Shown piece by piece: positions 559-6,296 of a DNA stretch of 6,296 nucleotides (positions are counted from its first letter, which is position 1; each line of letters opens with the position of its first letter). The notes under the pieces were generated by a model. It was not told the origin of the DNA. It saw only the letters and a list, made by a program, of their open reading frames with translations, and did no database searches. The DNA is taken from IMG/VR virus record IMGVR_UViG_2529292985_000023; one strand, 5' to 3'. Position numbers and translations under genes: made by a program. This DNA is from a virus. Taxonomy: Duplodnaviria > Heunggongvirae > Uroviricota > Caudoviricetes.

Positions 559-1727
<1,169 letters not shown>

Positions 1728-1799
1728 TGGAGCACCTGTGTTGTTCTGAGGTGAGCATATCACCTCTGTTCAGGTGGCCAAATTCAGTGTGCCACTTCA

Positions 1800-2362
1800 G
1801 AACCAGACGTTCGCTCCTACAGCACCAAATCAGGTCTGGGTGGCGGACCTGACGTATGTTGCCACACAGGAGGGATGGTTGTACCTCGCTGGCATCAAAG
1901 ATGTTTATACGTGCGAAATTGTCGGCTACGCCATGGGAGAGCGCATGACAAAAGAGCTGACAGGTAAAGCCCTGTTTATGGCGCTCAGGAGCCAGCGCCC
2001 ACCTGCCGGGCTAATCCACCACTCTGATCGAGGTTCACAGTACTGCGCATACGATTACCGGGTCATACAGGAGCAGTCTGGTCTGAAAACATCAATGTCG
2101 CGTAAAGGTCACTGTTACGACAACGCTCCGATGGAAAGCTTCTGGGGAACGCTGAAAAATGAGAGCCTGAGCCACTATCGTTTTAATAACCGGGATGAAG
2201 CCATCTCAGTAATACGGGAATACATTGAGATTTTCTACAATCGTCAGCGTCGTCACTCTCGTCTGGGGAATATCTCCCCGGCAGCCTTCAGGGAAAAATA
2301 TCATCAGATGGCTGCTTAAAAAAAGAACAAATGGTAGTGTCCGCTATTGCCAGTACACCTCA
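1800..2362 (+). mobile_element. 3' remnant of a second IS3-family element (IS3 group, possibly IS600-like), truncated on its left by the IS911 insertion
   Basis: Contains an OrfB C-terminal half followed by a plausible terminal IR ending ...GGTAGTGTCCGCTATTGCCAGTACACCTCA at 2362. The IS600 attribution is from memory only. Confidence 0.6.
1801..2319 (+). pseudogene. IS3-family transposase OrfB, C-terminal fragment (catalytic domain); the first 9 codons of the track ORF are read out of the IS911 IR
   Basis: Translation ...PNQVWVADLTYVATQEGWLYLAGIKD...HHSDRGSQYCAYDY...SMSRKGHCYDNAPMESFWGTLKNE...[18 protein letters not shown] aligns by eye with IS3 InsF. No orfA or N-terminal part is present. 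Confidence 0.75.
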
Positions 2363-2834
2363 CCGGGTGGCATGGATAAACCCGGAAGAGAGTAAATCAA
2401 ACCGCGCAATTGGCGTTGCGCTGAATGATACTGCATGTCGCGTATTGAAAAAACAAATCGGGAATCATCACCGTTGGGTATTTGTGTATAAGGAAAGCTG
2501 TACCAAACCAGACGGAACGAAAGCGCCAACAGTCAGGAAGATGCGGTATGACGCAAACACAGCCTGGAAAGCGGCGCTGAGACGAGCAGGTATTGATGAT
2601 TTCAGATTTCACGACTTGAGACACACCTGGGCAAGTTGGCTGGTTCAAGCCGGAGTCCCGTTATCAGTGTTACAGGAAATGGGAGGCTGGGAGTCTATCG
2701 AAATGGTTCGTCGATATGCTCACCTCGCACCTAATCACCTTACCGAACACGCACGGCAAATAGACTCGATTCTGAACCCATCGGTCCCAAATTTGTCCCA
2801 GTCAAGAAATAAGGAACGTACTAATGATGTGTAA
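2363..2834 (+). pseudogene. Tyrosine recombinase (phage/P4-like integrase) C-terminal catalytic fragment, N-terminally truncated by the IS3-family insertion
   Basis: Track ORF 2331-2834 carries the box II motif [10 protein letters not shown] and the catalytic tyrosine region [13 protein letters not shown]. Only about 157 codons remain and the upstream Arg box I region is missing. Confidence 0.8.
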
Positions 2835-4077: not shown

Positions 4078-4263
4078 CTACCTGCGCGGCGCTGGCTTCT
4101 TCCACTGGTAGGCAGGTGCTCGCATCATTTCGCGGAACCTGTCGCGCCGGGCTATATCGGCATTAACTGATCGTTCTATCTCCCGTTGATCTGCCTGTGT
4201 AAGCTGGTGGCCTCCGTGCTCAAGTTTGGCGATGGTCAATAAGGCTATTTCGCGTGGTGTCAT
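4078..4263 (-). CDS. Small hypothetical protein, 61 aa, basic C-terminus
   Basis: ORF with GAGGA 8 nt upstream of the ATG; same strand as the PerC-like and pRiA4b ORF-3 genes. No family recognised. Confidence 0.45.
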   Translation of the reverse strand: MTPREIALLTIAKLEHGGHQLTQADQREIERSVNADIARRDRFREMMRAPAYQWKKPAPRR

Positions 4264-4560: not shown

Positions 4561-4842
4561 CTACCTTTGCCTCTTGCCGCCATTTAACCGGAAGGCGTTA
4601 CCGTTCGGTTGCGCTATCCCCATGCGGTGTTGCGTTTCGGTAACAGCTTTATGCAGGTCGCCAAATTCCTCAACCTTCACGGGCGGGCGCTTCACGTTCT
4701 CCAGACACGTTTCACGGCGGCGCTTTATCCATTCCCGATCATCGTCCTCGGAGCATAACAGCATGACTTCCATCCATCGTGCGGCAGCTCTCCGGTATAG
4801 CCCTTTTGACTCCAGCTCTTCAGCTTTCCTGTCCCTTATCAT
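4561..4842 (-). CDS. PerC-family transcriptional activator homologue (PerC/Pch-like), 93 aa
   Basis: Translation MIRDRKAEELESKGLYRRAAARWMEVM...DDDREWIKRRRETCLENV fits the E-LE-GxxRRAAxRW-V...REWI-RR-C pattern I recall for PerC/Pch proteins. GAGAGG lies 6 nt upstream of the ATG. Confidence 0.6.
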   Translation of the reverse strand: MIRDRKAEELESKGLYRRAAARWMEVMLLCSEDDDREWIKRRRETCLENVKRPPVKVEEFGDLHKAVTETQHRMGIAQPNGNAFRLNGGKRQR

Positions 4843-4877: not shown

Positions 4878-4992
4878 TGTTGGTTCAGTTGGTTCAATTT
4901 GTAAAGATCGTTGTTTTTATTATGTTTTTTTCTAAAATATTGAACCAACATCAACTCATTTTGAACCAACACAGCCCAGCTCTGAACCAACA
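4878..4992. repeat. Array of five copies of the 9-bp motif TGAACCAAC: two tandem inverted copies (GTTGGTTCA at 4879-4887 and 4888-4896) and three direct copies (4941-4949, 4962-4970, 4983-4991) phased at exactly 21 bp, separated by a 44-bp AT-rich spacer
   Basis: Read directly from the sequence; all five 9-mers are perfect matches. The array lies in the divergent intergenic region between the PerC-like gene and the RHH-like gene. Confidence 0.75.
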
Positions 4993-5057
4993 ACACAGCG
5001 ATAGCTTTGTGATTGGTCCGTTATTTTCTGGCTGATATTTGAGCGTATAACAGTGTT

Positions 5058-5076
5058 ATACAGTGGTATACTGTAT
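5058..5076. promoter_or_regulatory. Operator-like palindrome ATACAGT-GGTAT-ACTGTAT (7-5-7), preceded by tandem 10-bp units TATAACAGTG and TTATACAGTG (5046-5065); overlaps a -10-like TATACT at 5067-5072
   Basis: Perfect 7-bp inverted arms read from the sequence, 18 bp upstream of the ATG at 5094 on the plus-strand gene side. Confidence 0.4.
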
Positions 5077-5147
5077 GGATATTACTCACTGATATGGTCT
5101 TTGCAATGAGCAAATCTAATCTGATCGCGTTCCGCATCCCATCTTAA

Positions 5148-5549
5148 TTGCAGGATGAGTTTAATCGGTCTGTTCTCGCTTCTGGAGGGGATAAAACCTC
5201 CTGGCTTGTTGATGCGATTCGCATGAAGCTGGGACAGCCGGAAAAGTCTATTGATTCACGAATGCTTGGGCTGGTGGAGCGCATGGAAAAAGCCGCTGCG
5301 TCGCTTATTGCCGGAAAGCCGAACATCCCACCAAAGCCATATAACGAAACGGCAGTTATAAAGATCATTGCCGATACCATCCAACAGGGATTTGATAATG
5401 GGCGTGTGATAGCTGAACGGATCAATGAAGCAGGCTATCAAACAAAAGCTGGTAAAGCGTGGGATAAAGATATTTACAGCGCGTGGAAGCGTCAGGGAAG
5501 CAATGCTGAAAATTTAAAAGCGGTGATTGATTGTAAGGTCAGCGTATAA
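5148..5549 (+). CDS. Hypothetical protein, 133 aa from a TTG start; probably the downstream part of a ribbon-helix-helix-like regulator whose frame begins at ATG 5094 and is interrupted by TAA at 5145-5147
   Basis: Track ORF; no Shine-Dalgarno before the TTG. The same frame upstream reads MVFAMSKSNLIAFRIPS*, giving a beta-strand/helix/GG-turn/helix layout typical of Arc/CopG-type RHH domains across the stop. Confidence 0.5.
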   Translation: MQDEFNRSVLASGGDKTSWLVDAIRMKLGQPEKSIDSRMLGLVERMEKAAASLIAGKPNIPPKPYNETAVIKIIADTIQQGFDNGRVIAERINEAGYQTKAGKAWDKDIYSAWKRQGSNAENLKAVIDCKVSV

Positions 5550-5640
5550 ACATGAGTGCCCATTGGAAAGTAAGCGTACAGCCTGAACCGTCTGGTCAGA
5601 ATCTGACGAATTAGACAAAGTGGTGTCCACCAAATAAGTA

Positions 5641-6042
5641 GTGGGAACCAAAGTGTCAGATATGCAGAAAAATGTGAATCCCGGCAGGCGAAAAGGCTGC
5701 CCTAATTATCCTCCCGAATTTAAACAGCAGCTCGTTGCTGCCTCCTGTGAACCCGGGATATCCATCTCAAAACTTGCTCTTGAAAATGGCATTAACGCCA
5801 ATCTGTTGTTCAAATGGCGACAACAATGGCGCGAGGGAAAGCTGCTATTACCTTCTTCAGAGAGCCCCCAGCTACTTCCTGTGACTCTCGATGCAGCTGC
5901 CGAACAGCCAGAATCGCTCGCAGAGGATCCGGAAACCCTCAGTATCAGCTGTGAGGTAACGTTCCGGCACGGGACGCTCCGCTTCAATGGCAATGTCAGC
6001 GAAAAGCTCCTGACTCTGCTGATACAGGAACTGAAGCGATGA
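5641..6042 (+). CDS. tnpA: IS66-family accessory protein TnpA (orf1); GTG start at 5641, alternative ATG at 5662
   Basis: Translation ...PEFKQQLVAASCEPGISISKLALENGINANLLFKWRQQWREGKL is characteristic of IS66 orf1 proteins. Confidence 0.85.
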   Translation: MGTKVSDMQKNVNPGRRKGCPNYPPEFKQQLVAASCEPGISISKLALENGINANLLFKWRQQWREGKLLLPSSESPQLLPVTLDAAAEQPESLAEDPETLSISCEVTFRHGTLRFNGNVSEKLLTLLIQELKR

Positions 6043-6296
6043 TCCCGTTACCTTCCGGGACCAAAATTTGGCTGGTTGCCGGTATCACCGATATGAGAAA
6101 TGGCTTCAACGGCCTGGCGGCAAAGGTGCAGACGACGCTGAAAGACGCTCCGATGTCAGGTCACGTTTTTATCTTCCGTGGGCGTAATGGCAGTCAGGTA
6201 AAGCTCCTCTGGTCTACCGGCGATGGACTGTGTCTGCTGACCAAACGGCTGGAGCGCGGCCGCTTCGCCTGGGCCGTCAGCCCGGGATGGCAAAGT
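6039..6296 (+). CDS. tnpB: IS66-family TnpB (orf2), N-terminal 86 codons; 3' end outside the window
   Basis: ATG at 6039 overlaps the tnpA stop (ATGA). My translation MIPLPSGTKIWLVAGITDMRNGFNGLAAKVQ...GRFAWAVSPGWQS matches the IS66 TnpB family; it is absent from the ORF track because no stop falls in the window. Confidence 0.85.
   Translation, partial: MIPLPSGTKIWLVAGITDMRNGFNGLAAKVQTTLKDAPMSGHVFIFRGRNGSQVKLLWSTGDGLCLLTKRLERGRFAWAVSPGWQS

Follow-up and report, generated by a model that had tools for sequence, protein, structure and literature searches.

The window, by which we mean the whole stretch of 6,296 nucleotides that was analysed, is identical in sequence to contig AERM01000230.1 of assembly GCA_000193895.2 from Shigella dysenteriae CDC 74-1112, and is a decayed, IS-riddled fragment of an integrative or satellite-type mobile element. 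From left to right it carries an IS1, an IS3-family copy, an IS3-family fragment, the C-terminal 167 aa of a tyrosine integrase, a 119-aa ORF, a gene of the pRiA4b-ORF3 family, a 61-aa ORF, a PerC-family gene, the regulator gene studied here and an IS66-family element. The integrase is of the P4 type and only its C-terminal 167 aa are left (2331-2834, plus strand); it is abutted by the stack of insertion sequences at 1-2319, made up of IS1, the complete IS3-family element (559-1763, minus strand) and the IS3-family transposase fragment (1774-2319). The element is no longer able to excise by itself. At the other end, the IS66-family insertion, with TnpA, TnpB and TnpC, starts about 21 bp past the regulator stop codon and replaces the sequence found downstream in E. 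coli. Rfam and tRNA scans of the window returned nothing. The features around the regulator are as follows.

4078-4263, minus strand: companion gene, 61 aa (phrog_7271; 40% identity, E 1e-11, to a 63-aa neighbour in Salmonella)
4561-4842, minus strand: PerC-family regulator gene, intact, 93 aa, divergent from the regulator
4879-4991, no strand assigned: iteron cassette, with two tandem copies of GTTGGTTCA (4879-4896), an A/T-rich spacer and three copies of TGAACCAAC
5045-5061, no strand assigned: candidate operator GTATAAC-AGT-GTTATAC, a conserved 17-bp palindrome, one per locus
5064-5072, plus strand: candidate extended -10, TG-G-TATACT (at the same position TGaTATAAT in Morganellaceae and TGgTAAAAT in class 2, defined below)
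5094-5105, plus strand: upstream in-frame ATG and three further codons (MVFA), ahead of the MSKS with which family N-termini begin
5106-5549, plus strand: pseudogene of a 147-aa two-domain DNA-binding regulator, with intact copies in E. coli and relatives in many genera of Enterobacterales
5145-5147, plus strand: premature TAA, Glu14 to stop, a G-to-T transversion at 5145 relative to the GAA of intact copies
5148-5549, plus strand: residual ORFs of 133 aa from TTG 5148 and 108 aa from ATG 5223, taken from the ORF list and both deposited as S. dysenteriae proteins
5570-6296, plus strand: left end of the IS66-family element, placed where similarity to intact E. coli loci ends (5570)

The first-pass annotation had described a frame from 5094 to 5549 that is open apart from one TAA at 5145-5147, and translation bears this out: the plus strand reads MVFAMSKSNLIAFRIPS, the single internal stop, then LQDEF and onwards to CKVSV and the terminal stop. 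The interruption is as described, but its numbering as codon 18 of a 151-aa product does not hold. Homologues begin at MSKS, and conservation of the MVFA extension from ATG 5094 does not reach beyond Escherichia, with no conserved upstream frame in other genera; the true start is thus ATG 5106, and the lesion changes Glu14 of a 147-aa protein. As judged from the family alignment, the start codon is that of MSKS, a position occupied by GTG in Salmonella and Serratia, and the MVFA segment is probably 5' UTR. Intact orthologues in RefSeq are likewise 147 aa long and named 'hypothetical protein' (WP_001428518.1, WP_001344215.1). Database searches gave 365 matches to regulator relatives, from Escherichia, Salmonella, Klebsiella, Enterobacter, Serratia, Pantoea, Erwinia and others, nearly all of them 141-147 aa long and devoid of a precomputed Pfam domain; a tblastn search of 50,697 deposited phage records found no homologue. 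In an alignment of 36 sequences the N-terminus, MSKSxxVxFRxPxEL, is strongly conserved, with F9, R10 and P12 invariant, so that homologues keep the segment upstream of the stop and do not begin at what corresponds to 5148. Conservation within the family is highest in the C-terminal domain. Its motif DNGRIIAERxNEAGYQTKxGKAWDKDIYSAWKR (residues ~95-130 of 147 aa) is near-invariant from Escherichia to Providencia, in contrast with the N-terminal DNA-reading region, which switches class, and this constancy in sequence would imply a conserved partner or target of that domain.

Alignment with three intact E. coli copies shows that the TAA arose from GAA through one G-to-T change at 5145, GAA being one of the two sense codons that had been proposed for this position, and residue 14 is E or D in 35 of the 36 aligned homologues. 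A comparison of the window with E. coli O111:H8 strain 8E across 2.7 kb reveals 7 SNPs and 2 indels, and the sole substitution within the gene is the nonsense change. Five other S. dysenteriae assemblies share the identical 67-nt stretch with this TAA, making six concordant assemblies in all; three of the five have it on contigs of 4.7, 4.3 and 3.3 Mb, large and complete chromosomes among them. It is absent from 5,426 complete E. coli genomes: searched with a 60-nt probe centred near the stop, these gave 358 records matching the TAA version, none at 100%, and 360 matching the version with the G restored, 354 of them at 100%. The locus thus shows what characterizes a nonsense pseudogene, namely a sense codon in intact orthologues, a conserved coding N-terminus and a stop reproducible in six assemblies. 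On these sequence comparisons, we regard the stop as a real, lineage-fixed G-to-T mutation in S. dysenteriae, and the description of a gene interrupted by a nonsense codon was correct.

Two shorter frames are left after the stop. One opens with TTG 5148, immediately after the TAA (TAATTG), the other with ATG 5223, the first in-frame ATG to follow; no Shine-Dalgarno sequence precedes either. The 133-aa ORF has been deposited as 'hypothetical protein [Shigella dysenteriae]', indexed in 33 blocks and found on 17 contigs, and the 108-aa ORF is the original annotation SDB_04477 of CDC 74-1112, also labelled 'integrase'. N-terminally shortened 108-aa forms that start with MKLGQPEK (P0171, P0096, P0178) are deposited under the same label from S. 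dysenteriae, E. coli and Salmonella, and this label is a propagated misannotation. Further disrupted alleles occur in E. coli, as frameshifts (P0060, P0068) and fusions (P0002, P0004, P0006). The predicted DNA-reading strand is missing from both residual products of the Shigella allele, and the 108-aa one has lost the two predicted RHH helices as well.

The proposal that the intact protein has a ribbon-helix-helix (RHH) fold found support through a broadened profile and remote relatives, but not through any direct Pfam, NCBIfam or PDB match of the repaired protein. When the stop-repaired protein was searched against RHH families as had been suggested, neither Pfam nor NCBIfam gave an RHH match: no RHH family in Pfam was hit by the protein or by 35 homologues, even at E<=10, the only Pfam match of the repaired protein itself being HTH_62 at E 0.2, the gathering thresholds of Arc (PF03869) and RHH_1 were not reached and NCBIfam yielded noise only. 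PADLOC returned nothing, and PHROGs gave one unnamed family at E 8e-4. Searches of the PDB by hmmsearch with full-length and narrow N-terminal profiles produced only chance matches (L7Ae, a designed repeat protein), only truncated fragments of the regulator family were recovered from the word index with the N-terminal profile, and the narrow family-only profile reached just 22-27% in hhalign.

A wider search, with an N-terminal fragment profile against 1.84 billion representative proteins, yielded 64 proteins, of which 24 are remote. Pfam matches among these 24 comprised 12 to RHH_1 (best E 8.2e-6), 7 to NikA-like, 7 to TacA1, 2 to HicB and 1 to Arc (E 8.6e-4), all of them RHH families; five remote relatives carry a C-terminal Recombinase match, and relatives of the same architecture score 13-19 bits on the RHH model, for a cut-off of 20.5. 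Once the sequences of remote relatives were included, the broadened N-terminal profile (A7) matched only RHH proteins in the PDB, led by the CopG-family regulator 7AK7 (E 0.0012) and followed by MazE6, VapB26 and DUF1778. An hhalign comparison paired it with P22 Mnt across 42 columns in the expected register, with a probability of 82% (P 1.1e-5), and with CopG at 53%, the Mnt and CopG query sequences being identical to PDB 1MNT and 1B01. Within the Mnt alignment P12-S13-E14-L15 pairs with P-M-E-V, which places the stop at the start of helix A, in agreement with the earlier view that it falls between the strand and helix A. An AF2 monomer model (P0001) is all-helical with pLDDT >90 over about the last 70 residues (~80-150) and poor over residues 1-75 (pLDDT about 50), drawing residues 8-13 as a low-confidence helix, not a strand; a low N-terminal pLDDT in such a model would be expected for an obligate-dimer domain, yet is no evidence of one. 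This convergent, indirect evidence supports the reading as an RHH regulator, and the intact protein is most likely an Arc/Mnt-like repressor.

For the C-terminus, HTH_62 (PF20552) gave weak matches in 29 of 35 members and Recombinase (PF07508) in 15 of 35; neither reached its gathering threshold over this domain, and one remote relative of the same architecture passes that of PF07508 (26.8 versus 21.1 bits). The family shares the motif L-N-x-x-G-Y-x-T-x-x-G-K-x-W with the Recombinase/HTH_62 domains of large serine recombinases, and on the structural model the C-terminus can with confidence be described as a helical recombinase-like HTH domain. We infer for the intact form of the pseudogene a layout with an N-terminal RHH-like domain, a central helix and this C-terminal domain.

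Comparison with characterized RHH proteins places the family near known regulators. As in P22 Mnt (PDB 1MNT), an N-terminal F-R-x-P-x-E strand, helix A, a turn at G and helix B can be followed through the 42 aligned columns, and a C-terminal extension follows the RHH domain. L6, A8 and R10 of the regulator pair with Mnt His6, Asn8 and Arg10, the residues that Mnt/Arc genetics has established as contacting the operator, and positions 6 and 8 belong to the set that changes with operator class. The P22 immI region is located beside ejection genes, and the regulator is likewise found on mobile elements, sometimes beside P22-type ejection genes. Unlike Mnt, it has a recombinase-like HTH C-terminus of ~70 residues instead of a tetramerisation coiled coil, and no ant/arc-type target genes. 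CopG/RHH_1 (PF01402; 2CPG, 7AK7), MazE6, VapB26 and TacA provide the best PDB matches of the broadened N-terminal profile. CopG autoregulates through a site overlapping its own promoter, and a CopG-like autoregulation at its own promoter is what we propose for the regulator. It differs from RHH antitoxins in having no partner toxin gene, and its own matches lie below or near threshold; we know of no extra C-terminal DNA-binding domain in CopG/RHH_1 or the RHH antitoxin families.

A candidate target lies directly upstream of the gene. We took the upstream 90 nt from 42 loci of GTDB species representatives, together with loci fetched earlier, and found a candidate operator of two TGTnnnAC-type 8-mers 10 bp apart, always 45-70 nt upstream of the regulator start and 3-4 nt upstream of a candidate -10. 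Two classes exist. Class 1 proteins, with S-N-L-V/I-A-F-R at residues 4-10, occur in Escherichia/Shigella, Salmonella, Klebsiella, Serratia, Proteus, Providencia, Morganella, Photorhabdus and Xenorhabdus; their operator, (T)GTATAAC-N3-GTTATAC(A), was present in all 21 species representatives, with TATACT or TATAAT 3-4 nt further on and a TG in front of it. Class 2 proteins, with S-L-S-V-T-F-R, occur in Erwinia, Pantoea, Rosenbergiella, Tatumella, Mixta, Cedecea and Pectobacterium-like taxa, and there TGTCTTAC-N2-TGTCTTAC followed by GTG-x-TAAAAT was found in 20 of 20 representatives. In both types the paired 8-mers abut an extended -10, and the operator class tracks strand residues 5, 6 and 8 in 41 of 41 representatives, with just two classes among them. 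The sole exception to the operator rule is a copy in Serratia sp. L9 (L066, NZ_CP192591.1, 4001-4283), which has neither operator type upstream; this copy is divergent (42% identity over the match, with a class-1-like N-terminus) and may be relocated or decaying.

The pairing of operator class with strand variant suggests an autorepressor whose N-terminal strand sets specificity. Because the classes number just two and differ in helix A as well, the association is consistent with read-out by the strand, not proof of it, and may reflect one evolutionary switch. From its conserved position, 5064-5072 would be the -10 of the regulator's own promoter; a promoter/terminator consensus scan, which needs a -35, returned no site. 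In about 70 loci, a search of the 4-8 kb on either side turned up no further copy of the operator. The suggestion that the lesion derepresses an adjacent module is therefore unsupported, because the only recognisable target is the regulator's own promoter, and the IS66-family element lies immediately downstream.

The iteron cassette between the PerC-family gene and the operator has TGAACCAAC copies at 4941, 4962 and 4983, a period of 21 bp. Such iterons adjoin the regulator in about half of the loci and are absent there in all Morganellaceae loci. The same 9-mer forms larger clusters just beyond the 3' end of DUF927/primase genes in Serratia, Erwinia and Klebsiella phage P12620-1 (L070, PQ569648.1). 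With 6-16 copies of TGAACCAAC and GTTGGTTCA in both orientations, these clusters are located at 9498-9786 of L016, 7884-7987 of L014 and 3980-4270 of L070, in each case adjoining a DUF927 or Toprim-DUF927 primase-helicase gene on its 3' side. From their placement these clusters look like the replication origin of a P4-like satellite family and, if they are origins, the cassette beside the regulator would be a second, crr-like site; by analogy with the P4 ori/crr iterons, they probably belong to the element's replicon (ori/crr-type), not to the regulator. As an operator of the regulator the TGAACCAAC iterons were considered and rejected, given their absence beside the gene in Morganellaceae and their clustering at DUF927 replicase genes. 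Within the cassette the number of tandem GTTGGTTCA copies varies, from two in the Shigella window to three in E. coli TW10598 and Salmonella and four in E. coli O111:H8 8E (arrays compared at L001 6030-6065, L002 and L004 5690-5716), so that in sequence the array behaves like a small VNTR. A literature search on the iteron sequences and accessions gave nothing relevant.

In other genera the regulator is found in P4-like satellite or island settings (AlpA, DUF4222, Bro-N/Ash, DUF927-Toprim primase) or beside P22-type ejection genes, followed by variable cargo such as Abi_2, PemK and ImmA/IrrE. Its only conserved neighbour is the companion gene, whose 61-63-aa product ends in ...APAYQWKKPA..RR and has no Pfam match; it lies convergent and directly downstream in most genera, and upstream, beyond PerC, in Escherichia and Shigella, with further homologues at L004 6480-6671, L016 6511-6699, L017 6440-6631 and in L032. 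PerC is adjacent to the regulator only in Escherichia and Shigella, being absent from this position in Salmonella, Serratia, Klebsiella, Erwinia and Pantoea; it was rejected as a co-regulated partner, as it is not a conserved neighbour. One Pantoea coffeiphila locus (L032, NZ_JAFBFW010000002.1, 3712-6305) contains a 1,251-bp unit of iterons, operator, regulator gene and convergent 62-aa gene in two identical tandem copies, with a third iteron set, adjoining a 514-aa large serine recombinase (6350-7894, minus strand); the tandem units could be a real amplification or an assembly artefact.

Taken together, we consider it likely that the locus is a lineage-specific pseudogene, in which Glu14 of an Arc/Mnt-like RHH autorepressor of a decayed element has become TAA and regulator function has been lost. 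The intact protein would comprise a DNA-reading strand (residues 5-11), helix A (~13-25), a G-x-D/K turn, helix B (~30-42), a central helix with a possible role in oligomerisation and the C-terminal recombinase-like HTH, and would bind the two 8-bp sites (TGTnnnAC, 10 bp apart) over the -35/spacer of its own extended -10 promoter, thereby repressing itself. A single G-to-T change in the S. dysenteriae lineage that includes CDC 74-1112 would then leave a 13-residue peptide from ATG 5106, and any 133-aa or 108-aa product made by re-initiation, being without the strand, would be unable to read the operator. We would predict that the regulator no longer functions and that, at most, its own transcript, by now of no use, is derepressed. 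Shigella is a lineage known for pseudogene accumulation, and the lesion follows the same pattern as its other pseudogenes formed by point mutation or insertion sequences, a lineage-fixed nonsense SNP in an element truncated by IS1, IS3-family and IS66-family copies, with nothing to set it apart. Because it is one nonsense change among seven SNPs in such a lineage, the event fits an ordinary pseudogene arising through gene decay by drift.

Several other explanations were weighed against this pseudogene reading. That the base at 5145 is a sequencing or assembly error and the gene intact with GAA might be suspected from a short draft contig of 6,296 bp in which a single-base difference is the only lesion, but the same TAA in five further assemblies, on megabase-scale contigs among them, and the repeated indexing of the 133-aa product make the chance of such an error negligible, and we discard this earlier alternative. 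A strand-less product re-initiated at TTG 5148 or ATG 5223 could instead still work, as a new or dominant-negative factor: the TAATTG geometry permits termination-reinitiation, the ORF shows no further decay beyond the stop, public annotations list both products, and the C-terminal HTH is the most conserved part and in the model folds confidently alone. We think this unlikely, given that no Shine-Dalgarno sequence precedes either start, that an absence of further decay is uninformative at a background divergence of 0.25% and that the element itself is degraded, with its integrase truncated, an IS66-family element 21 bp downstream and the remainder missing; a dominant-negative product would also find no intact partner, as there is one copy per S. 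dysenteriae locus examined. Adaptive (pathoadaptive) loss, in which removal of the repressor was selected through derepression of neighbours such as the divergent PerC-family gene, draws on the fixation of the allele, on the 264 bp that separate the two genes and on general precedent, Shigella being known to fix losses of anti-virulence genes. Yet the operator sits at the regulator's -10, ~200 bp from the PerC start, and nowhere else in the flanks of ~70 loci, PerC is not a neighbour in other genera, and one nonsense change among 7 neutral-looking SNPs per 2.7 kb of an IS- and pseudogene-rich genome points to drift; we hold this explanation to be very improbable.

Other doubts concern the function of the intact protein, which might not be an autoregulator but an RHH antitoxin, or an accessory factor of replication, partition or recombination acting on the TGAACCAAC iterons. 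Remote relatives do match the antitoxin RHH families TacA1, HicB, MazE6 and VapB, about half of the loci have the cassette next to the gene, the C-terminal domain is similar to the recombinase domain of serine integrases and one module adjoins a large serine recombinase. An antitoxin role is opposed by the lack of a co-directional downstream toxin gene, the conserved neighbour being a convergent 62-aa gene, and a toxin-antitoxin pair was rejected as downstream neighbours are convergent or variable and neither PADLOC nor NCBIfam gave a match. An accessory role is opposed by Morganellaceae loci that have no adjacent iterons and yet an invariant C-terminal domain, by iterons that track DUF927 replicase genes and by the specificity-linked site at the regulator's own promoter, so that either departure from autoregulation seems quite unlikely. 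Still more speculative, and in our view distinctly improbable, is a combination in which the gene, its 62-aa companion and the TGAACCAAC cassette form a ~1.25 kb portable control module of P4-like satellites and integrative islands, coupling self-repression through the N-terminal domain, whose specificity can switch, to replication or recombination at the iterons through the invariant C-terminal domain, the strand-less Shigella protein keeping the latter function.

For the window itself the finding carries little weight, as it adds one more point-mutation pseudogene to Shigella, and the 133-aa and 108-aa 'proteins' now in the databases should become one pseudogene. Of modest wider use is a description, as RHH-type regulators with a C-terminal recombinase-like HTH, for an unnamed family that is widespread in Enterobacterales and lacks any Pfam, NCBIfam, PHROG-function or PADLOC assignment. 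The indirect evidence would place this undescribed family among the RHH autoregulators, a known kind of regulator, its C-terminal domain being unusual. Its predicted operator, in two specificity classes, would offer a cheap test system for how RHH strands recognise their operators, and the gene may be used as a marker for this family of satellite and island elements.
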